Part shown: piece after piece, positions 22,823-48,785 of the stretch | Numbering within the stretch: the stretch's first letter is position 1 | Layout of the letters: every line of letters begins with the position of its first letter | NCBI GenBank assembly: GCA_035647455.1 | Contig: DASRNI010000028.1 | Coordinates: 202,736 to 266,735, forward strand | Source: Bacilli bacterium | GTDB lineage: Bacteria > Bacillota_I > Bacilli_A > RFN20 > CAG-826 | Length of the DNA stretch: 64,000 nt | Reading direction: 5' to 3' | Translations under genes and position numbers: made by a program | Notes under the pieces: model-generated | Database searches by the model: none | The model's input: the letters and a program-made list of their open reading frames with translations, nothing else | What the model was told of the DNA's origin: nothing

Positions 22823-23469
22823 TGTTCGAATTTGGTCTTTTAGAATATGGCTTAATCGTCGCCGGCATTGTTGTTTTAGTGACGATTTTAGTTGTTGTTA
22901 TTCTCGTCATTAGAAAACGACATTTAAAGAAACGATTTCAAGTTAAGTATTTTTATCCGCACGTTTATAAAACGGCACTTTATTATGACTATTACTTAAT
23001 TAATACGTTTAATATTGCCTTAACCTCGCAACTTGATTTAAAGATTGATCATTTACTGTTTGGGAATAAATACATCTACATTATTAATGATTATATTTAT
23101 GAAGGTATACTGACGGGCAACAAGCAAGATCGTAGTTGGATTCTTAAAGATTTAAAAGGTGAAGAATCTTATATTACTAACCCCTTAAAAGTTAACGATG
23201 AAATTCGTAAAAAGTTAAGTTTGAAAACAGCGATTGATGATGCAACATTTATTTGTATTACGCTTGTAAATAACAAGACCGATATTAACAATTTGCATGT
23301 TAATACAAAAGACAACTATATTATTGATATCAAAGACTTTATGAAACTTATCGAAGCAATCGAGTCGCGGAAAGTTAGTGCTTTAAACGCTGAACAATTA
23401 CAAAAACGCGTCATTGAATTTGATAAACTCAACATGTTTAAGAAACGAAAAAGATTATGGAGAAAATAA
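22822..23469 (+). CDS. Membrane-anchored protein with NERD-like (nuclease-related) domain
   Basis: 215-aa ORF whose ATG overlaps the deoD stop (TAATG). An N-terminal TM helix is followed by IDHLLFGNKYIYIINDY, which resembles NERD domains. Confidence 0.4.
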   Translation: MFEFGLLEYGLIVAGIVVLVTILVVVILVIRKRHLKKRFQVKYFYPHVYKTALYYDYYLINTFNIALTSQLDLKIDHLLFGNKYIYIINDYIYEGILTGNKQDRSWILKDLKGEESYITNPLKVNDEIRKKLSLKTAIDDATFICITLVNNKTDINNLHVNTKDNYIIDIKDFMKLIEAIESRKVSALNAEQLQKRVIEFDKLNMFKKRKRLWRK

Positions 23470-24530
23470 CGACTAAAGCGGTATTTCGCGACTTACGAAA
23501 AAATAAAATTAAATTCCGCGAACATATTTTAGGAATATTGCTCTATTTAGCAATTATTTACGCGATCGTCTTTTTAGCTACAACTTCGGTTGATTTTCTT
23601 GGCGTAATTGTCTTTTTCTTTTTACTATTACCGGCGACGGTAATTTACATTGAATATACAAGTTTAGTGGAAGCGGGGGCGAAACCGGAAAACTTTAGCA
23701 AACTATTACGGCAATTGTTCCGTAATGCTTTTCGGAGTGGCCGTACATTTTTGCTCTTTTCTTTTAAGACTTTGCTTTTAATTTTTCTCGCCTTAATCGT
23801 TTCAAATGTAGTAACAGGAAGTGCAATTGCAATTTACGACGCAAGTACATCCGGGAAATTAATTTTATTTTTTGAAGAAGCAACAGAGATATTACTCACA
23901 GGTGGGAATGAAGCATATTTAGACTTTTTAATTGAAGGTTTAGATGACTTTGAAAGCTACTTAACATTTTTTACTGTTATGAGTGAGTTCTTTATTTTCC
24001 TTTTTGTTATTTATGCGTTTAATCGTAACAGTTTTTTAATTTTTGCCGATATGTTTATCGAACGGAGCCCGGCAGTAAAAATGAAAACAGTAATGGCTGA
24101 ATTTTTTAGTGATGCAGAAACAAAAAGAAAACGCCGCAGAATTCAGTTTGTTAGTTTTATCATTGTAAGTTTTGCTTTCGGACTTGTGTACTTTACAAGT
24201 TTTACAATCATTAACGCATTAGCCGAAGGTGGCGCTGGTTTAAATATTGTCCTCTTACGGACGAATTTAATTAGTTTTGCCCTTTTTGTTTTCCTTGTCC
24301 CGTTCATGATTCGTTTTAATTATTATTTATATCAACAAATCGCCCGCACAAAGCGACCAGACATATTACGGTTTTCAATTTATGAAATAGGCCGATTAAT
24401 TGAGACTCCAAACATTCCTGATGAGATGAAACAGTATTTGGACGTCGTGAAAAAACTCCGTGAAGAAGAATTAAGAAAACTTGAAGAACCTGATTTTTCT
24501 GAAAAAGAAGATAAAAACAAAAACGAATAA
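23457..24530 (+). CDS. Hypothetical polytopic membrane protein
   Basis: 357-aa ORF with multiple hydrophobic segments and a charged C-terminal tail. Overlaps the preceding ORF by 13 nt. No family recognised. Confidence 0.6.
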   Translation: MEKITTKAVFRDLRKNKIKFREHILGILLYLAIIYAIVFLATTSVDFLGVIVFFFLLLPATVIYIEYTSLVEAGAKPENFSKLLRQLFRNAFRSGRTFLLFSFKTLLLIFLALIVSNVVTGSAIAIYDASTSGKLILFFEEATEILLTGGNEAYLDFLIEGLDDFESYLTFFTVMSEFFIFLFVIYAFNRNSFLIFADMFIERSPAVKMKTVMAEFFSDAETKRKRRRIQFVSFIIVSFAFGLVYFTSFTIINALAEGGAGLNIVLLRTNLISFALFVFLVPFMIRFNYYLYQQIARTKRPDILRFSIYEIGRLIETPNIPDEMKQYLDVVKKLREEELRKLEEPDFSEKEDKNKNE

Positions 24531-36234: not shown

Positions 36235-37620
36235 ATGAAAACAAAACGCACAAGTGCAGTGTTAACTCTTGTTGTTGCACTATTTATCGGTGCTTTTCTT
36301 GCATTCGCCCACATTTTGCTTGGGAGTGACTTCTTACAGCTCGGTGCATTGAAATTCGCAACTTACTTTGCAGCACTAATTCAATTTGATCCGCTCGTTT
36401 GGGCAATCGTGAACATTAGTGTACTTGCTGTTGCTTTAGTACTTGCATTAATTTGGATTATCCGCCTATTAGTTTATCGTCGTAACGTCTTTAATTTGTT
36501 ATCACCAATTGTTTTTCTAGTCGCCGTTTTTATCGGGATTTTTGTTGTTGATAGCAGTGATACGATTGAAAGCTTTTTCGGTAATGCGAATACAATTGTA
36601 GTCACCGGTTACTTATTAGTGACTGCGGCAATTATTGTTGCACTCGCAATTCATTTAGTAATCGTTGGTTTAATTACTTCAGGACCACGCAAAAAAGAAC
36701 AACTAATTGATGAAGAAGTTTTAGCAGTCGACGAAGAAGTAGATTCAACATTATCTTTTGATGAAGAAGAAGACGAAGAAGAAGAACTTGTCGAAGTTGA
36801 AGAAGTAGTTGTTTACGAAGAAGAGGAAGAAGAATTCGACGGTGAAGTTGAAGAAGACGAAGAAGAAGTTGAATTTGACGGTGAAGTCGAAGACGAAGAA
36901 ATTGAAGAAGTCGTTGAAGAACCTATCGAGGAAGAAGTTGTTGAAGAAGCGGCTGCTGAAGTTGTTGAACGGGTTATTCACCAAGAAATTGTTCAAACAA
37001 TCGTTCAAGAACCGGATTATGAAAGTGAAAAACTCGAAGAAATCATTCGGAAGATTATTCGTGAAGAACTAAAAGATGTTGAAGTTCGTCCGGAACCAGT
37101 CAAAGAAGAACCGAAAGTCGCGCCAAAGCCAGTTGCAAAACCTGCACCTAAGCCAGTAGCGAAACCAGCGCCAAAACCGGTTGCAAAGCCAAAGGTGGCA
37201 ACACCTCCAGCACCGCGACCACAAACTGTTGAGCGCATTCCTTTTGCCGTACGTCTCGAATCGATGGAAACTGATATCCAAGAAAAATACGAAGAACTCC
37301 GCGATTACTTATTGAGTTATGATATTAAATCAAGAGTTTCAAATTCAGGTGATTCATTCCGTCTCTCGCGTAAACTTTACGCCAAGATTACGACATCAGG
37401 AAATACTGGACTAAAAATTTACTTACCAGTAGATATTACTGATTATGCTGACACAAAGCTTCCACTTAAAAATGCAAGCCATATTAAAGCATACGCAGAT
37501 GTCCCTACATTCCTCTACATTAAGAGTGATTTATCAGTTCGTCGCGCCAAACAATTAATTGATGACGTGATGCTTGCTGATGGTATCGTTCGTAAGTTCC
37601 AACGTGAAGATTTAGAATAA
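36235..37620 (+). CDS. Membrane protein with poly-acidic linker, PKPVAKPA repeats and a conserved-looking C-terminal domain
   Basis: 461-aa ORF. About 4 N-terminal TM helices are followed by a roughly 90-aa D/E/V-rich tract and three APKPVAKP repeats. A roughly 120-aa globular C-terminus follows (RIPFAVRLE...RRAKQLIDDV). Family not recognised. Confidence 0.7.
   Translation: MKTKRTSAVLTLVVALFIGAFLAFAHILLGSDFLQLGALKFATYFAALIQFDPLVWAIVNISVLAVALVLALIWIIRLLVYRRNVFNLLSPIVFLVAVFIGIFVVDSSDTIESFFGNANTIVVTGYLLVTAAIIVALAIHLVIVGLITSGPRKKEQLIDEEVLAVDEEVDSTLSFDEEEDEEEELVEVEEVVVYEEEEEEFDGEVEEDEEEVEFDGEVEDEEIEEVVEEPIEEEVVEEAAAEVVERVIHQEIVQTIVQEPDYESEKLEEIIRKIIREELKDVEVRPEPVKEEPKVAPKPVAKPAPKPVAKPAPKPVAKPKVATPPAPRPQTVERIPFAVRLESMETDIQEKYEELRDYLLSYDIKSRVSNSGDSFRLSRKLYAKITTSGNTGLKIYLPVDITDYADTKLPLKNASHIKAYADVPTFLYIKSDLSVRRAKQLIDDVMLADGIVRKFQREDLE
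36709..36969 (+). repeat. Low-complexity GAA/GAAGAAG-rich coding tract (poly-Glu/Asp/Val)
   Basis: Encodes DEEVLAVDEEVD...EEFDGEVEEDEEEVEFDGEVEDEE...EEVVEEAAAEVVE, including a duplicated (E)EFDGEVE(E)DEE unit. Confidence 0.8.
37120..37191 (+). repeat. Three tandem 24-nt repeats encoding APKPVAKP
   Basis: Units at 37120..37143, 37144..37167 and 37168..37191 encode the same octapeptide with synonymous differences. Confidence 0.85.
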
Positions 37621-42915: not shown

Positions 42916-43802
42916 TGAACTTTAAAAAATACGTCAATAGTTTACCGTCATTAAAAGGACAAAAAATTGTGATAACGGGCACCACAAGTGGGCTCGGATT
43001 TGCCCTTAGCGAACTTGTACTCATCAAAGGTGGCGATTTAATTATGGCTAATCGCACAAGTAGTCGCGCCACAAAAGCGCAAGCGTATTTAAGTGAAAAA
43101 TACGGCGCTCAAAAAGTACAAACAATCACATACGATCAAAGTGATACAACAACATTTGCCGCGTTTATTAATGAACTCAAAAACTTAAAGGGAGAAATCA
43201 ATGCTTTTGTTTTTAATGCTGGTGTTTATTTGCCTGATGAAGCATTACGCACGGATAAAGATTTAATGTTAACGTTTGGCGTTAATTACTTTGGTAATTA
43301 TGCTTTGACTGAAAAACTTTATGAAAGCGGACTCGTCAAAAAGTCAACAAGATTAATATACACGACATCGATTGCTGCGAATAAAAAACTTTCAACAAAA
43401 TGTGTTAATCATCTCTTTAATAACACAGTACCTAAACGTCATCGCGAATATAAATACTCCAAAACAGCTTTAAATATTTACGCAAGTAATTTAATGAATA
43501 CAAAAGAAAACAATGTCTATTTATATCATCCCGGAGTTACGGGAACGAATATTGTCCGTTTCCGCGGTAAACTCATTCGTAGACTTGCGCGCTTTTTCAT
43601 GAAACTTATCTTCCCACCCACGAATAAAGCCGCGCTTGGTGCGATGCTCGCATTAACGACAGAAGACGGTGGTAAAAATCACATAATTGTTCCGCGTGGC
43701 GCTTTTAACATTGTTGGTTATCCGAAGTTCAAAGAGTTAAAAATAAAAAATAGTGCCGCAAGTGCAACACTACTTGAATTAAGTAAAGAAAAAGCCCGTT
43801 AG
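42915..43802 (+). CDS. Short-chain dehydrogenase/reductase family protein
   Basis: 295-aa ORF with ITGTTSGLGFA (TGxxxGxG) and a YKYSK (YxxxK) motif. Confidence 0.75.
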   Translation: MNFKKYVNSLPSLKGQKIVITGTTSGLGFALSELVLIKGGDLIMANRTSSRATKAQAYLSEKYGAQKVQTITYDQSDTTTFAAFINELKNLKGEINAFVFNAGVYLPDEALRTDKDLMLTFGVNYFGNYALTEKLYESGLVKKSTRLIYTTSIAANKKLSTKCVNHLFNNTVPKRHREYKYSKTALNIYASNLMNTKENNVYLYHPGVTGTNIVRFRGKLIRRLARFFMKLIFPPTNKAALGAMLALTTEDGGKNHIIVPRGAFNIVGYPKFKELKIKNSAASATLLELSKEKAR

Positions 43803-44344
43803 AAATCGAGTTCTAACATTTTTTTGGCATACGTTTCATAAACTTCAATTGTTACCGTACGAATTGACTGAGTTTCGCTATTAATATTAAAATCAATCCC
43901 CTTAATAATATCGGGATCAAACTTTGCGTCATCAAGCGCAATCCGCTCTTTGGCGGCCTTTTCTTTGTCGCCCCGTTCAAGCATTCGCGCGTAACGAACA
44001 TCACGGCTTGCGTGCATAAAAAAAGAAAAGATACAAGGATCATTAAGTTTTTTAAATGCTTTTAACCCGGAAGGGTCAACAATTAAAACTTTGTCATTCG
44101 CGATTTCTACTTTGGAAGTCCCATAATAATTGTCATTGTATTTTGTTGTTTCGACGAAAAAATCTTTATTTTTGAGTTCGATAAATTGTTCGTAACTGAC
44201 GAAATGGTAATCAATCCCGTTTATTTCACCAGGACGCATCGCCCGTGTTGTGTGGGTAACGGCTTTTTTGACACCGAAAAGTTTTCCAAGTTTTTTCGCA
44301 ACTTCGGTTTTACCGCTTGCACTCGCGCCGACTAAAATAATCAT
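43799..44344 (-). CDS. gmk: Guanylate kinase family protein
   Basis: 181-aa ORF with P-loop GASASGKTE, then THTTRAMRPGEINGIDYHFVS and YYGTS. Whether it is the housekeeping gmk or a paralog cannot be told from this window. Confidence 0.7.
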   Translation of the reverse strand: MIILVGASASGKTEVAKKLGKLFGVKKAVTHTTRAMRPGEINGIDYHFVSYEQFIELKNKDFFVETTKYNDNYYGTSKVEIANDKVLIVDPSGLKAFKKLNDPCIFSFFMHASRDVRYARMLERGDKEKAAKERIALDDAKFDPDIIKGIDFNINSETQSIRTVTIEVYETYAKKMLELDF

Positions 44345-44432
44345 AGTAATATATTACGTCAAATTTACGTAAAAAGCACGAAAAAAAGGTCCTGAAAATA
44401 AAATCTTTTGTATTTTTAATTAAGGAGGCGAG

Positions 44433-45398
44433 ATGAAAAAGATTATTCCGCTTATTTTTTTACTTTTAATTCCGTTGCAAAGTGATAGTATGCCGACAAA
44501 TTACCGCGGGATTATTGATCACGAAATTTACCCTTTTCAAATTAATGAGCCGTTCCATATTTCGGTTCCGTTTTATTTTAGTACGGCAACAGCTTTAAGT
44601 TACCGCTATGAAATTGTTAATAGTAACGGTAGAAGTACTTTTTTCGCTGATGATAAAACCGTGAATATTCGCGCGGGCTTTAATTACTTTATTAGTCATA
44701 CGGGCAAAGCTAGTGAATTTAGTCTAGGGCGCAATTATATGCGTCTATATTATCGCTTAGATAGTGAACCTTGGCGAACGTACTATGGTTATTTTTATGG
44801 CTATAATGCGTATAGTAATATTGTAATTAATGATGACGGGGCGGGGAGTTCACTTTTAGCAAACGAAGCGCGATATACGTATTATCAACAATCAAACTCG
44901 GGAATTATCGAACAAATGTTTTTTGATACGTCAGCGTTCAAATTTACTTATACACTACATAATGACTTATATTTTGATTTAGGTAAGTTAACTGCGCGAT
45001 TTATTAATTTTGAACGTTCATTAAGTTACGACGGTGTTCGTGTGAGTTTTAGTGATTATAGTCTTTTCCCAAAACTACCAACATTAGCCGGTAAGAAAGC
45101 GCTCCACTTAAAAATTATTTACACGAATAATGAGTTAAGGTTCCGGCCATACTATCAACTTTATGTTGATCCTAAAACGCATATTATAAGTTATGAAAAA
45201 GAGCCTGGTTTTATTCTCGCTGATAAAATATATTTTCCGCGGGACAAGTTTGATACAGTCAACAATGCTGAAGTAACGATGACGATTACAAATTTTAGTT
45301 ATGGCGGCTTTACGTTAACGTACCATTTTCAACTTAACGTTTTACAAAAGTACTTTGGCGATGGCGGTCTTTATGAAATAGAAGTTGAGCGTTATTAA
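44433..45398 (+). CDS. Secreted hypothetical protein, first gene of the Tad-like cluster
   Basis: 321-aa ORF with strong RBS TAAGGAGG and an N-terminal signal-like segment MKKIIPLIFLLLIPLQS (no lipobox Cys). The remainder is Tyr/Phe/Asn-rich and looks beta-rich. No family recognised. Confidence 0.65.
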   Translation: MKKIIPLIFLLLIPLQSDSMPTNYRGIIDHEIYPFQINEPFHISVPFYFSTATALSYRYEIVNSNGRSTFFADDKTVNIRAGFNYFISHTGKASEFSLGRNYMRLYYRLDSEPWRTYYGYFYGYNAYSNIVINDDGAGSSLLANEARYTYYQQSNSGIIEQMFFDTSAFKFTYTLHNDLYFDLGKLTARFINFERSLSYDGVRVSFSDYSLFPKLPTLAGKKALHLKIIYTNNELRFRPYYQLYVDPKTHIISYEKEPGFILADKIYFPRDKFDTVNNAEVTMTITNFSYGGFTLTYHFQLNVLQKYFGDGGLYEIEVERY

Positions 45399-45399
45399 A

Positions 45400-45777
45400 A
45401 TGTGGGGATATTTAAGTTTTATTTTTTTGTATATGTTTATGGGCACATTTACTGTCAGTGTTAATTTAGTGCATATGAATGAAGTTTTTAATAGTTTTTC
45501 GCATTCCTACGTTGCTACATTTGTGATTTACAACCAAAATTATGATGAGTTACTTTTTGATACGTATAGTTTAAATAGTGAAGTTGCCGCGTACTTTGCC
45601 GAAAATATTAACACGGCAATTAATTATCAATATCAGCTTAATTATTTTTATGACGAAGAAGAAGTGACACACGAAAACACAGTTAATAATTTTACAATTA
45701 CATTAAAAGGTGATGTTGGTTTTTTTGTTGAGTACGAAAAAACATTTCGTTACTATATTGTCCGATGGAGAAGTTAG
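45400..45777 (+). CDS. Small N-terminally anchored protein (possible minor pilin/pseudopilin)
   Basis: ATG at 45400 is 1 nt after the preceding stop (the listed TTG at 45385 is an alternative). It starts MWGYLSFIFLYMFMGTFTVSVNLV and continues with a roughly 100-aa hydrophilic domain. Confidence 0.55.
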   Translation: MWGYLSFIFLYMFMGTFTVSVNLVHMNEVFNSFSHSYVATFVIYNQNYDELLFDTYSLNSEVAAYFAENINTAINYQYQLNYFYDEEEVTHENTVNNFTITLKGDVGFFVEYEKTFRYYIVRWRS

Positions 45778-46682
45778 TTAACGTTATTAACGCAAGTTTC
45801 CTAAAAGACTACGTTAATGATAAGAATATTACGGATATTAGTTATAACGGCCATGAATTGTTTATTTTTGATACAGTTAAAGGACGACGGTTTGCGCGGA
45901 CTGTTACGACGGAAGAAGTAATGGTATTACTACGTAACGTTGCGAACTTAGCAAATGCCCAGTTTTCTTATCGCGACACTTTTTTAGACTTAAGTATTGG
46001 TAAATATCGTCTAAGTGCAATGCATCCAGCGAAAAGTCGTTATAACGAAAAGAAAGCACCTAGTTTTGCTTTGCGCATTAATCATGATTTCTTGAGCACT
46101 AATCCGCATTATATTGACCGTGAAATCACCGAAATTTTAGAAGAACTGCTTATGACGAATAAAACGATCATCATTAGCGGGAAAACAGGAGTTGGGAAAA
46201 CGACGTTACAGAAGTACCTTTTAACGAAACTAAAAAGTGCGACAAGATTAGTCGTAATTGATAACGTCCTTGAGTTAGGTGAAGTAAAAAAACTTAACAA
46301 AGCACTTGATGTGACGCTTTGGCAAACAAGTGAAACGGATGAAGAAGAAATTGGGCAGTACGTTAAAAATGCATTACGGTTTCATCCGGATTACATTATT
46401 ATTGCCGAAAGCCGTGGTACGGAGATGAATGAAGTTTACCAAAGTGTAATCACGGGACATCCGAATATTATTACTTTCCATGCGCGTTCAATCGCGGCTT
46501 GTTATGCCCGTTTAGAGCGGTTAATTAAAAATGCAACGCTTGAAGAAATTTACGAGGCGTTTCCAATTATTATTCACTTAGATAAAACGGAGACAAATAA
46601 ACGCATTGTTCGCTTTATTCAAGAAATCACACTATACAATGAGACAACTAAAAAATTCGAGACACTTTTTGTGGAGCGCTAA
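45765..46682 (+). CDS. T2SS/T4P/T4SS-family secretion ATPase (CpaF/TadA/VirB11-like, minimal length)
   Basis: 305-aa ORF with ITDISYNG, LSAMHP, FALRI, Walker A ISGKTGVGKTT, VVIDNVLEL, Walker B region ALRFHPDYIIIAESRG and His box ITGHPNIITFHARS. Confidence 0.85.
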   Translation: MEKLVNVINASFLKDYVNDKNITDISYNGHELFIFDTVKGRRFARTVTTEEVMVLLRNVANLANAQFSYRDTFLDLSIGKYRLSAMHPAKSRYNEKKAPSFALRINHDFLSTNPHYIDREITEILEELLMTNKTIIISGKTGVGKTTLQKYLLTKLKSATRLVVIDNVLELGEVKKLNKALDVTLWQTSETDEEEIGQYVKNALRFHPDYIIIAESRGTEMNEVYQSVITGHPNIITFHARSIAACYARLERLIKNATLEEIYEAFPIIIHLDKTETNKRIVRFIQEITLYNETTKKFETLFVER

Positions 46683-47372
46683 ATGTTAAATATTATTAGT
46701 TTAGGAATTTTAGTCGCGCTTGTTAGTCTCTATAGTTTGATTATTTATAGTTCACTAACGCTCGTTTTAATTAATGCGCTCGTTACTTTGATGGCCGCAC
46801 TTTTTATTTACGTGCGCAGCACACTTTATCGTGAACGGATAAAGTTATTTATGGATATGGCGAGTTTTATTGAGTTGATGCTTTTAAATATTAATGTGCA
46901 AAAGACGATAGATGGGGCGTTTAACGCTGTAAAAGCGTTGTTAAGTGAAACACTTACGAAAAAATTAAGTACGCTTAATATAGCCGATAGTCGAACAGTG
47001 ATTAATGAATTGACGAATTATTTCGCCCACCATTATTATGATATTTTTACGGGTTTATTGTTTACTTATGAAGAAAGAGGGGGCGATATTATTAAAATGA
47101 GTGAAGTATTATTATTGCGGCTTGATAGCACACGGGGTTTAATTAATGCACTTCAAAAAATCGATTTGCGCTATTTAATTAAGTTTATGAGTAACTGGCT
47201 TTTCATCTTTGCGATTGGTGTTGTTTTTCGTTATGCCTTAAGTAACGTATTTACGACGTTAAATAACAGCATTATTTTTATTATAGGCAACGAAGTTTTA
47301 ATTGTGATTATGCTCTTAAGTTTAATCTTTGTCTTAGAAAACAAAAGGAGACGAATGTTTAATGTTCATTAA
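46683..47372 (+). CDS. T2SSF-like platform protein (TadB-like)
   Basis: 229-aa ORF with N-terminal TM pair, a helical cytoplasmic domain (FIELMLLNINVQKTIDGAFNAV...YEERGGDIIKMSEVLLLRL) and C-terminal TMs. The ATG directly follows the ATPase stop. Confidence 0.6.
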   Translation: MLNIISLGILVALVSLYSLIIYSSLTLVLINALVTLMAALFIYVRSTLYRERIKLFMDMASFIELMLLNINVQKTIDGAFNAVKALLSETLTKKLSTLNIADSRTVINELTNYFAHHYYDIFTGLLFTYEERGGDIIKMSEVLLLRLDSTRGLINALQKIDLRYLIKFMSNWLFIFAIGVVFRYALSNVFTTLNNSIIFIIGNEVLIVIMLLSLIFVLENKRRRMFNVH

Positions 47373-47970
47373 GAAACTTATAAAGTACGGTGCAAGTAGT
47401 GTCTTTATAATTGGTGCTGCGGTTTTATATTTGCTAAAATTCCCGCCGTTATATGCCGCGGCACTAATAATCTTAAGTTTGTTTACATTTATTTTTGTGA
47501 AAACAACCCCAGCAAAAAAGCACTTTACAATTCACGAGTTTATTATCACATTTACCCATTTTCGTGTTGCCCTTGATAGCGATGCAAATGTTTTTTATGC
47601 GCTAGTAACAGCGATTGAACGCGCTGCACCCACGTTAGCGGAAGAATTGCAATTACTCCATAATGAAATGATGACTGATCATAGTGTTACACCGTATATT
47701 AACTTTGCCCAAAACTTTAAGGAACCAATTATCACGCATATTATGATTAATATTTATTTATTAATTAATCATGGAGTCGATGCGAAAAGGTTATGGCAAT
47801 TTAATTATATTTTCGAGACATTAATTAAGGCGAATTATGATGAAGTTTTAGCCGATCATAAAAGTAGTTATGAAAAGTATGATACGGTGCTCTATTTTGG
47901 CACGGCCGTTTTGATGATGACGATTTTGCTTAACGTAATGAATCTGATTGGAGCAGTTATCGGTGGGTAA
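47362..47970 (+). CDS. T2SSF-like platform protein (TadC-like)
   Basis: 202-aa ORF with the same topology (N-terminal TMs, helical middle, C-terminal TM). Overlaps the previous ORF by 11 nt. Confidence 0.5.
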   Translation: MFIKKLIKYGASSVFIIGAAVLYLLKFPPLYAAALIILSLFTFIFVKTTPAKKHFTIHEFIITFTHFRVALDSDANVFYALVTAIERAAPTLAEELQLLHNEMMTDHSVTPYINFAQNFKEPIITHIMINIYLLINHGVDAKRLWQFNYIFETLIKANYDEVLADHKSSYEKYDTVLYFGTAVLMMTILLNVMNLIGAVIGG

Positions 47971-48301
47971 CTTACTTAATACGCTATTCGGTGTTTTACT
48001 GATTCTGCCGATTATTTTGTTTGGGGTGGATCTTTATAGTATTAATGCGACAAAGTCATACTTAGAAGCACGGGCAACGACACTAAGTTACCGCATTAGT
48101 AAAGAAGGTGGTGTCCGGCAAACTTTAGTTAATGAACTTGCCAGTGAAAATATTATTATTAATTGTTTTGGCGAATGTCAAACTGTCAGCGCGGGCCAAA
48201 TTATTAAGTTCCAAATTGCGACGTATTATACGCCAATTGTCATTAATGCTGAAAACTTTGTTATCACCGTAACAAGAACAGTAATGATTGGCTATTTATA
48301 A
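47948..48301 (+). CDS. TadE-like pseudopilin / pilus assembly protein
   Basis: 117-aa ORF (TTG 47948 or GTG 47963). Its N-terminus LLNTLFGVLLILPIILFGVDLYS resembles the TadE N-terminal motif. Overlaps the previous ORF. Confidence 0.55.
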   Translation: MEQLSVGNLLNTLFGVLLILPIILFGVDLYSINATKSYLEARATTLSYRISKEGGVRQTLVNELASENIIINCFGECQTVSAGQIIKFQIATYYTPIVINAENFVITVTRTVMIGYL

Positions 48302-48318
48302 AGTAAGGAGGTGAGAAA

Positions 48319-48477
48319 ATGAGTGAACTAAAAGGACAAATATTAGGTGTATTACTAGTTATTCTCATGTTTGGGATAATTTCTGGAACAATGAAAATGA
48401 TTTTCAATTCAACGACATCACGGATTAGTTCAGAATATGACCAAGCGATATCAAACTTTACTGCTACAACTCCATAA
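48319..48477 (+). CDS. 52-aa Flp/type-IV-pilin-like prepilin candidate (not in the supplied ORF track)
   Basis: ATG 48319 follows a near-perfect RBS AAGGAGGTGA with a 6-nt spacer. Translation: MSELKGQILGVLLVILMFGIISGTMKMIFNSTTSRISSEYDQAISNFTATTP. A short charged leader ending KG is followed by a hydrophobic helix of about 17 aa. It is the last gene of the cluster. Confidence 0.6.
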   Translation: MSELKGQILGVLLVILMFGIISGTMKMIFNSTTSRISSEYDQAISNFTATTP

Positions 48478-48512
48478 TCAAAAAAGGAGTGGTTTGTAGC
48501 AATGTTTTATGT

Positions 48513-48541
48513 TTGCCAATAGTGAATATATTTGCTAATAT
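48513..48541 (+). promoter_or_regulatory. Putative promoter of acpP
   Basis: TTGCCA, 17 nt, TAATAT. Lies 17 nt upstream of the ACP start. Confidence 0.45.
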
Positions 48542-48557
48542 TTTCGTGAGGTGGATT

Positions 48558-48785
48558 ATGAATAAAAATCTAGCGAAAATAGAACAAGTGTTCAAGGAGA
48601 TGTTAAACTTAACATCGCTCGAACCCGAAATGGAACTCAAAACTCTTGGTTTAGATAGTCTCGACTTAGTCGAACTAATGATGAAACTCGAAGAAGAGTT
48701 TGGGATTGAATTCACAGATGACGAAATGCTTGGCTTCGAAACAATTGCTGATGTTACTGCCGATATTACAAAAAAATTAAACTAA
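48558..48785 (+). CDS. acpP: Acyl carrier protein
   Basis: 75-aa ORF from the ATG at 48558 (RBS GTGAGGTGG), with phosphopantetheine site LGLDSLDLVELMMKLEEEFGIEF. The listed longer ORF from 48489 is unlikely. Confidence 0.85.
   Translation: MNKNLAKIEQVFKEMLNLTSLEPEMELKTLGLDSLDLVELMMKLEEEFGIEFTDDEMLGFETIADVTADITKKLN

Follow-up and report, generated by a model that had tools for sequence, protein, structure and literature searches.

A conserved 52-codon gene at the end of a Tad-like operon of uncultured Bacilli: a probable mini-pilin of a chromosomal type IV filament machine

We analysed a 64-kb stretch of DNA (contig DASRNI010000028.1; hereafter, the window) from a Bacilli bacterium, with the focus on a 52-codon open reading frame (ORF), here called the small gene, which stands at the end of an operon resembling the Tad pilus systems. 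The small ORF is a genuine gene under strong purifying selection. Its product is probably the major subunit (mini-pilin) from which a Tad/Epd-like machine, encoded in the chromosome, builds a type IV filament. Judging by sequence comparison, this machine looks vertically inherited within a large group of genome-reduced, uncultured Bacilli, known from metagenome-assembled genomes (MAGs) labelled Bacilli, Tenericutes, Mollicutes or Erysipelotrichaceae. The product is a one-helix membrane protein, presumably translated at a high rate, and its gene is inherited together with those of a T2SSE ATPase and a platform-like pair of membrane proteins.

The original prediction, made from the window alone, placed a 52-aa ORF at 48319-48477, preceded by the best Shine-Dalgarno (SD) sequence of the cluster and closing a Tad-like gene set. 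Position and translation, MSELKGQILGVLLVILMFGIISGTMKMIFNSTTSRISSEYDQAISNFTATTP, were confirmed exactly; the SD sequence AAGGAGGTGA, a 10-nt match to the anti-SD, is the longest among the ten start sites checked in and beside the cluster (7 nt for the first operon gene, 0-6 nt for the remaining sites), and the ORF indeed is the terminal gene of the operon encoding the T2SSE ATPase and two platform-like proteins. In a six-frame scan of the window, where internal or antisense fragments were discounted as candidates, no other ORF had [KR]G after a short leader and before a run of 15 or more uncharged residues. The AlphaFold model built from a 60-sequence alignment is one unbroken helix spanning residues 2-50 (pLDDT 91.9).

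A protein search with the single 52-aa sequence yielded only itself and one 88% relative, the latter on a syntenic metagenome contig, and therefore the neighbouring ATPase was used as a handle to fetch loci, which made the conservation of the small gene visible. Relatives of the ATPase, down to approximately 27% identity, were found in MAGs labelled Bacilli, Tenericutes or Erysipelotrichaceae. An alignment-based scan with one genome per species produced 80 loci (ATPase identity 34-67%), and presence was counted over the 71 of them in which the sequence goes on for more than 2.1 kb beyond the ATPase gene. By pattern search, an ORF starting with M-[S/G/A]-E-[I/L/V]-K-G was observed in 70 of these at the same position, directly after the ~113-codon gene and before acpP. 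The remaining locus (L058, 8672-8854) has a small gene with KA for KG (MSEIKA↓QLLG...; here and below the arrow marks the putative cleavage point), hence 71/71 overall. A purine-rich AGGAG/GGAGG-type sequence precedes each listed family gene, as read by eye, unscored, from the upstream 20-mers.

Across 73 distinct genes, E3, K5 and G6 never vary and L9, L13 and F18 hardly do, while the third codon positions reach an entropy of 1.8-2.0 bits at degenerate codons. Against the nearest relative, dN/dS is 0.08 over 45 codons; conservation with dN/dS below 1 in relatives was one of the checks named by the original prediction, and this value, together with the presence in 71/71 loci, bears it out. A search with the family profile returned 645 clusters at 90% identity (E <= 10). 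When 1.84 billion representatives were scanned exhaustively with a hidden Markov model (HMM), 357 clusters (50% identity) had E <= 0.001, and 229 of these had E <= 1e-10. Nearly all listed family proteins align to the profile from residue 1 onwards, 231 of 262 start with MSEIKGQ, and the length across the family is 45-74 aa. The sources are gut, rumen, manure, digester and groundwater metagenomes; DNA nearly identical to that of the window was seen in metagenomes from manure and groundwater, while bioreactor and anaerobic-digester runs gave partial word matches. Of the 645 clusters, all are unnamed or 'hypothetical' but for three, whose JGI names are evidently spurious or generic, and a Pfam domain is assigned to none of them. 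The window protein itself was already present, unnamed, in the protein collection, hence it had been called by gene callers. The suggestion that automated annotation could miss the system is thus overstated as regards the small gene, which was called but has no family model or name; most of its partners are not recognised by a family model either.

Several observations concern individual loci or the tail of the protein. Two tandem, diverged copies of the small gene are present in L053 (8780-9141) and L068 (8702-9075), the first copy starting with GTG or TTG, which recalls the flp-1/flp-2 duplications. In 26 of 73 family members, residue 30 or 31, where the helix exits from the membrane, is the first of an N-x-S/T sequon; sequons starting at residues 27-38 were seen in 30 of 73, compared to 14.2 +/- 3.2 (maximum 25) in 1000 tail shuffles. 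The tail sequon may serve for glycosylation, as such sites do in archaeal pilins, or may be just a helix-exit motif. A cousin cluster, rearranged and probably located on a mobile element (L083:380-15851; also L084), comprises a 53-aa pilin-like ORF and genes for an 859-aa secreted protein, 137-aa and 113-aa N-anchored proteins, 229-aa and 246/254-aa membrane proteins and a 374-aa ATPase. A distant ATPase homologue, P0112 (L085), has a different gene context and is uninformative.

The same-strand genes at 44433-48477 are tightly packed or overlapping, and their order is strikingly constant among the loci: a ~330-aa signal-peptide protein, a ~130-aa N-anchored protein, the ATPase (~305-355 aa), polytopic proteins of ~235 and ~222 aa, an N-anchored protein of ~113 aa and the small gene. 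Upstream, on the opposite strand, is a guanylate-kinase-like gene (gmk); downstream are acpP and tRNA genes. The larger order, two CorC/CNNM-type genes, a short-chain dehydrogenase, gmk (opposite strand), the operon, acpP and tRNAs, is kept over window positions 43799-48785 and in L003-L082. Since it is kept though the ATPases are only 34-67% identical, the operon is embedded in housekeeping synteny and looks vertically inherited.

The ATPase matches PF00437 (E 5.1e-19, 68.6 bits, cut-off 24.9). All its NCBIfam matches are sub-threshold: 100 bits for the TadA-family model TIGR03819, 97 for VirB11, 91 for TrbB, 65 for FlaI and 58 for ComGA. A profile search against the Protein Data Bank (PDB) ranked archaeal GspE (2oap, 1.8e-30), the VirB11 protein HP0525 (3.8e-27), CpaF (1.9e-26) and FlaI (2.7e-22) far ahead of the PilB/GspE-type structures, for which E was only about 1e-8.

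The 229-aa and 202-aa families are paralogous (hhalign 92%, E 6e-7), like TadB and TadC, and by sequence appear to be a platform-like pair. The T2SSF family (PF00482) was matched below threshold by one of 33 members of the 229-aa family and by six of 33 members of the 202-aa family (best E 0.0076). The 246-aa homologue of the second membrane protein in L083 scores 24.0 bits, the cut-off being 25.2, and covers positions 7-122 of the 125 in the model; carried over by transitivity, this score is the strongest argument for reading the membrane proteins as a true platform. The single-sequence AlphaFold model of the 202-aa protein (pLDDT 44.5) was unusable.

The gene that directly precedes the small one likely starts with the GTG at 47963, overlapping the upstream stop, while the longest ORF begins with the TTG at 47948; the protein is then 112 aa long. 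PF16964 (TadF) weakly matches nine of 33 members of its family (best E 2.5e-4), and most members have Gly at position 6, as judged by eye from the alignment (A5). We consider it a candidate minor pilin.

The small protein itself has a strict layout: a five-residue polar leader MSE[ILV]K is followed by G (73 genes) or A (one gene) and then by at least 19 uncharged residues, position -2 invariably being K. This is the class III signal peptide arrangement as stated in PMC4371748, and here the original prediction stands, with its polar leader, invariant K-G and hydrophobic helix. A small residue (G/A) at -1 and a charged one at -2 are listed in the same review as archaeal-type recognition requirements, the charged -2 residue being critical for archaeal peptidases only (PMC4371748). 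Ala is the other small residue that prepilin peptidases are reported to accept. From these features we infer cleavage after Gly6. The L083 cousin cluster bears on the same issue, as its pilin-like ORF (MGEKSG↓G...) and its 113-aa protein (MGEKTG↓F...) have a common leader MGEK[S/T]G, and its presence on two different proteins points to a shared processing signal.

The residue after the putative cleavage point is Q in 62 of 73 genes, T in eight, and N, S and A in one each; the junction reads KG↓QI in the window and KG↓QL in the family consensus. The FlaFind-predicted sites of the Methanococcus maripaludis Epd pilins are KGQV, KGQV, KGQL (EpdD) and KGQI (EpdE, the major pilin) (PMC4371748, Table 1), and Gln at +1 is required by the peptidase EppA (PMC4371748). 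Thus, the likeness of the KG-Q junction to archaeal leaders, pointed out originally, is upheld in so far as the tetrapeptides are identical to the EpdE and EpdD sites, but the +5 Glu of the EppA substrates is missing and the context is firmly bacterial.

Taken together as a mechanism, the small protein would insert N-in, with its helix in the membrane. A prepilin peptidase of the A24 type, encoded elsewhere, would cut after Gly6 and expose Gln as residue 1, and this new N-terminus may be converted to pyroglutamate by cyclisation. By way of the two platform proteins, the ATPase would lift the 46-aa mature subunits from the membrane into a thin helical filament. Priming or capping of the filament would fall to the 112-aa TadF/DUF4320-like protein, and its decoration to the secreted protein encoded upstream. 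The most likely function would be to attach the cell to surfaces, hosts or other partner cells, adhesion being the default since it is usual for Tad/Epd-type pili; DNA uptake or transfer would be the second choice, because relatives of the machine sit in conjugation operons.

Comparison with known systems shows where the small protein fits and where it does not. It is similar to the Flp pilins of the Tad (type IVc) systems (Aggregatibacter Flp1, Caulobacter PilA and the Gram-positive Flp-like proteins) in being a tiny all-helical precursor without a globular head, in having Gly at -1 before the hydrophobic helix and an acidic leader residue near this Gly (cf. Rhizobium Flp, ...AREEDG↓VALTEY), and in the +1 Gln, reported to be common in Gram-positive Flp (PMC3875500). 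The gene setting is Tad-like as well: the neighbours encode a short ATPase of the CpaF/TadA kind, a platform-like pair from two separate genes and a protein resembling TadF. On the other hand, the leader has only five residues, there is neither +5 Glu nor +6 Tyr, the locus encodes no TadV, TadZ/CpaE or RcpC, and the platform proteins are below the T2SSF threshold. The canonical Flp motif G↓xxxxEY (as defined in PMC3244431), already described as lacking in the original prediction, is absent from all 73 genes, none of which has an acidic residue at +5. The Flp_Fap family PF04964 does not match the window protein at E <= 1, nor is it among the 25 most frequent of the 38 families matched at E <= 10 by 47 relatives.

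The second point of comparison is the Epd pilins of M. maripaludis (EpdE/MMP1685 and EpdB-D, the DUF361 group). Besides the identical tetrapeptides, they have a short leader ending in Gly (5-13 residues; PMC3875500), a ~60-aa major pilin without a globular domain and one ATPase with two platform genes (bioRxiv 10.64898/2026.04.22.720090), as well as N-x-S/T sequons in the tail. Unlike the small-protein family, they retain the +5 Glu, have a dedicated large peptidase, EppA, in the locus, and belong to archaeal hosts, whereas the hosts here are Bacilli, Tenericutes or Mollicutes MAGs with bacterial synteny; no sequence homology of the small protein to Epd pilins was demonstrated. Competence pseudopilins of the ComGC type likewise come from monoderm Bacilli, have K-G in front of a hydrophobic helix and are encoded in one operon together with an ATPase. 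However, ComG pilins carry a G↓FT(L/I)xE motif with +5 Glu and a globular domain, and the ComG system has a single two-domain platform protein, ComGB, and a longer ATPase. In its working the system resembles a Tad (type IVc) or archaeal Epd pilus, yet by the tests applied the small protein is outside both the Flp family and the DUF361/Epd pilins.

Among other families, Pfam and NCBIfam gave only noise for the window protein (GspH, E 0.13; PsiE, E 0.02), and a scan of the 47 relatives brought up no pilin family. The TrbC/VirB2 HMM of conjugative pilins (PF04956) is essentially unmatched (one of 47 relatives, E 0.11), and no genes of a type IV secretion system (T4SS) are found around the chromosomal operon. 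DUF6112 was matched weakly by five of 47 relatives (best E 3.5e-4, 20.8 bits, with the cut-off of 25), and the DUF6112 proteins may be a related mini-pilin family; the best match (L014:8661-8858) aligns residues 2-62 to model positions 17-78 of 88.

A number of results weigh against the mini-pilin interpretation. Position +5 is occupied by I, V, M or L in 73/73 genes, and no acidic residue is found at positions 7-26, while Glu or Asp at +5 is carried by EppA substrates (PMC3875500) and nearly all bacterial pilins; pilins without the +5 Glu are known in Sulfolobus and Haloferax (PMC3875500). The PilFind rule demands [GAS]-[uncharged]4-[DE], 14 uncharged residues after it and one transmembrane (TM) segment near the N-terminus (PMC3244431); as none of the 73 genes has D/E at +5, the small protein fails this motif, though in size and in the single N-terminal TM segment it agrees with PilFind. 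The small-protein profile had only chance hits (E >= 0.65) among the PDB sequences, and a Foldseek search of the one-helix model against the PDB found no match, a lone helix carrying too little fold information. The platform assignment is based on the sub-threshold T2SSF hits and topology; hhalign of the membrane proteins against single Rhizobium TadB and TadC sequences gave no match, and neither did the profiles of the two proteins against the PDB. Position 6 of the 112-aa protein is Asn instead of Gly in the lineage to which the window belongs. A search of sequencing runs revealed no RNA run with the region in it.

The same holds for the peptidase. No A24 peptidase was found among all ORFs of the 64-kb window (GxGD motif and TM count), nor by Pfam among ten multi-pass or unassigned window ORFs, and there was no Peptidase_A24 Pfam tag among the called genes of L001 and L083-L085. 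A phmmer search of all ORFs of 92 loci (~1 Mb) with a single Rhizobium CpaA seed, which has low power, revealed no peptidase; no candidate was seen in any of the 71 operons, and the homologous plasmid modules described below yielded no A24 prepilin peptidase either. Extension of the window's contig through its edge genes reached only a short contig on one side and no record on the other. These searches cover only a few per cent of each genome, and genes for prepilin peptidases frequently lie in another place or serve more than one system (PMC6668835), hence the negative is an absence of evidence only. Two other kinds of proteins were considered. The polytopic proteins of the operon were rejected as peptidases, as their invariant residues (F, G-G and W in one; P and G in the other) include no membrane Asp pair. 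A 357-aa protein (window positions 23457-24530, plus strand), for which approximately six membrane helices are predicted, had no Pfam match at E <= 0.01 and is the one multi-pass ORF among those checked in the window to which no assignment at all could be given; it lacks the GxGD motif and therefore is no obvious prepilin peptidase.

If the small protein is not processed, these observations would be explained differently. The main rival explanation retains the same machine, but supposes that at most Met1 is removed and that the protein is either the filament subunit or a fixed subunit of the ATPase-platform complex, the invariant E3-x-K5-G6 being an assembly or docking interface. The missing +5 Glu and the lack of a peptidase in the sequence searched are in line with it, and so is the invariance of E3 inside a leader that is supposedly discarded. 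Residue 2 of the family is always S, G or A, which is compatible with Met excision. The plasmid proteins that occupy the corresponding position (47-50 aa, one helix) also agree with this explanation: MLDQNTDRSWWMIGAV..., MQENNVSRIIYLIGG... and MLENNVFRLMILMGG... have Arg directly before the helix and no Gly, and the first two start with a polar 8-residue N-terminus without Gly or Ala before the helix. These mini-proteins, however, may be uninformative, since they have no detectable homology to the small-protein family. Conversely, a position 6 restricted to G/A together with an invariant K5 is what peptidase recognition predicts and matches the EppA sites, the two L083 proteins share their leader, and in Rhizobium Flp, the one Flp leader examined, acidic residues also stand upstream of the cleaved Gly. 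Weighing these points, we find an unprocessed protein rather doubtful, and favour the processed mini-pilin. The prepilin identity proposed originally thus stands as far as a real conserved gene with a class III layout is concerned; its processing is an extrapolation from the leader, with no A24 peptidase found in the sequence searched and with plasmid counterparts lacking the Gly.

Sequence comparison places the closest demonstrable homologues of the system among uncharacterised plasmid genes. A tblastn search of plasmids with the ATPase produced 1,110 records; the best matches are full-length, with approximately 27-32% identity over approximately 90% of the ATPase and E down to 4e-25, are annotated as 'CpaF/VirB11 family protein' and come from Bacillus (the pLS20-like pBamB1895; pXO2), Listeria and Enterococcus. 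They lie in collinear blocks (Table 1) with the order: an adhesin (Tie/thioester, MucBP or SpaA), a ~125-aa N-anchored protein, the ATPase, two membrane proteins of ~245-270 aa, a ~120-aa N-anchored protein (named 'DUF4320 family protein' by NCBI in Enterococcus) and one or more one-helix proteins of 47-50 aa, which in pBamB1895 are present in three tandem copies. In pLS20, gene 34 encodes the adhesin Tie and gene 37 a 'putative VirB11', while genes 36 and 38-41 are listed as unknown (PMC8557374). Homology to the gene 37-40 blocks is supported by these tblastn matches for the ATPase and, at the level of sequence profiles (Table 1), for both membrane proteins and the 113-aa protein. It does not extend to the flanking genes: the 130-aa protein (A8) has no detectable similarity to the gene 36-type protein (hhalign 3.8%), and the small protein (hhalign probability 0.2%) has size, position and one-helix topology alone in common with the gene 41-type protein.

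The plasmid blocks differ from the chromosomal operon in several respects. In pLS20, pXO2, pAW63, pJHP9_2 and pFV5 they are plasmid-borne, within a T4SS (VirD4, VirB4, VirB6, VirB8); their ATPases carry an N-terminal extension (388-471 aa), unlike that of the window; and their mini-proteins have no K-G junction. It is nevertheless possible, and we suggest it tentatively, that the operon and the plasmid gene 36-41 blocks form an unrecognised branch of type IV filaments polymerising one-helix subunits of ~45-50 aa. If so, Gram-positive conjugative plasmids would build a Tad-like mating filament, despite the stated view that Gram-positive conjugative elements form no pili (PMC8557374; PMC11730352; PMC9673590), and the filament machine of the Mollicutes-like Bacilli would be a version domesticated in the chromosome. 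Its pilin would then have kept an EppA-type KG↓Q junction but lost the +5 Glu, which would imply either another peptidase or assembly of unprocessed subunits.

A further alternative is that the operon is a DNA-transfer device (for conjugation, exchange or uptake), the small protein forming a mating or DNA-capture filament and being functionally closer to a conjugative pilin than to Flp. This would agree with the location of the nearest recognisable relatives of four components inside Gram-positive conjugation operons beside VirD4-like coupling proteins, and with the L083 cousin cluster, after which come genes for a coupling protein of the TraG/VirD4 type, for ERF and SSB and for a PDDEXK nuclease. 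The name of the best NCBIfam match, 'TadA family conjugal transfer-associated ATPase', and the weak matches to DUF6112 and TrbC/VirB2 point the same way. Yet no coupling protein, VirB4, relaxase or recombination genes are present within 6 kb on either side of the operon, the housekeeping synteny (gmk ... acpP, tRNAs) looks like that of an inherited cellular organelle rather than a mobile element, and the enterococcal and pXO2 plasmids hold a separate TrbC/VirB2-family protein besides the mini-proteins. We consider this alternative improbable. Finally, the mere 52 codons and the lack of a family hit might have suggested that the ORF arose by chance or is non-coding DNA that separates the cluster from acpP; this is excluded for practical purposes by the conservation data: 71/71 loci, saturated synonymous sites, dN/dS of 0.08, the conserved SD sequence and hundreds of clusters.

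Table 1. The small gene, its operon and the related plasmid blocks. Positions are those of the window unless a locus is named.
Feature	Position	Strand	Remarks
Small gene, 52 aa, probable prepilin/mini-pilin	48319-48477	+	ATG start
SD sequence of the small gene	48305-48314	+	4 nt before ATG
Leader MSELKG	48319-48336	+	Putative cleavage after G6
Hydrophobic helix	48337 (start)	+	Starts with Q7
Sequon N30-S-T	48406-48414		Polar C-terminal tail
Sequon N46-F-T	48454-48462		Polar C-terminal tail
First operon gene, 321 aa	44433..45398	+	N-terminal signal-like sequence
130-aa protein	45385..45777	+	One N-terminal membrane helix; present in nearly all loci
ATPase, 305 aa	45765..46682	+	T2SSE (PilB/TadA/VirB11) superfamily, short VirB11/CpaF/archaeal-GspE type
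229-aa polytopic protein	46683..47372	+	First platform-like paralogue (TadB/TadC-like, divergent T2SSF)
202-aa polytopic protein	47362..47970	+	Second platform-like paralogue
~112-aa protein (113-aa family)	47963..48301	+	N-terminal membrane helix and small beta-rich domain; TadF/DUF4320-like
acpP	48558-48785		PF00550, E 5e-14; downstream of the small gene, followed by tRNA-Asn/Glu
Collinear block, pBamB1895	L086:7700-13300
Collinear block, pXO2	L089:3600-8800
Collinear block, E. faecium pJHP9_2	L088:3600-8800
Collinear block, Listeria pFV5	L087:3700-9200
First membrane protein (A3) vs pLS20 gene 38 type			hhalign 96.3%, E 1.7e-9
Second membrane protein (A4) vs pLS20 gene 39 type			hhalign 96.1%, E 3e-9
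113-aa protein (A5) vs pLS20 gene 40/DUF4320 type			hhalign 93.7%, E 1.9e-7

The 321-aa product of the first operon gene had no Pfam or NCBIfam hit, and its slot in the related loci is filled by a ~310-430-aa protein with the mean column identity of 20% (alignment A7); it is a candidate secreted, adhesin or tip component. The true start of the 130-aa gene is probably the ATG at 45400 (MWGYL...), as in L003. In most of the loci L011-L080 there is an extra first gene, approximately 1.3-1.8 kb upstream of the ATPase (e.g. L011:4328-4651), encoding a cytoplasmic protein of ~100-135 aa with a basic N-terminus and no predicted TM segment; it is missing in the sub-clade of the window (the window and L003-L010). 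At the other end, no terminator-like hairpin was seen between the small gene and acpP, the only one being beyond the tRNAs, and acpP has a promoter-like site of its own at 48513-48541. Elsewhere in the window (36235-37620, plus strand) a 461-aa protein has several N-terminal membrane helices, a long acidic Glu/Asp stretch and a tandem KPAPKPVA repeat; it had no convincing family match (DUF6057, E 0.007 only).

We found no description of such a system in the literature on Acholeplasma, RF39, Tenericutes and Gram-positive conjugation. Classical Mollicutes are reported to be devoid of type IV pilus genes and served as a negative training set for pilin prediction (PMC3244431). If the small gene encodes a mini-pilin, it would add a widespread pilin family, unnamed in databases, along with a machine whose ATPase alone is currently recognisable, and would place type IV filament machinery in Mollicutes/Tenericutes-like Bacilli. 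An EppA-type junction without the +5 Glu would bear on the descent of Tad from archaeal Epd-like pili (PMC6668835), as well as on whether Glu5 and peptidase processing are indispensable for assembly. The most valuable lead is the homology to the gene 37-40 blocks of the pLS20/pXO2 type, which provides a testable hypothesis for Gram-positive mating-pair formation. For the uncultured, auxotrophic gut Bacilli themselves, a surface filament would be a plausible key to attachment or DNA acquisition.

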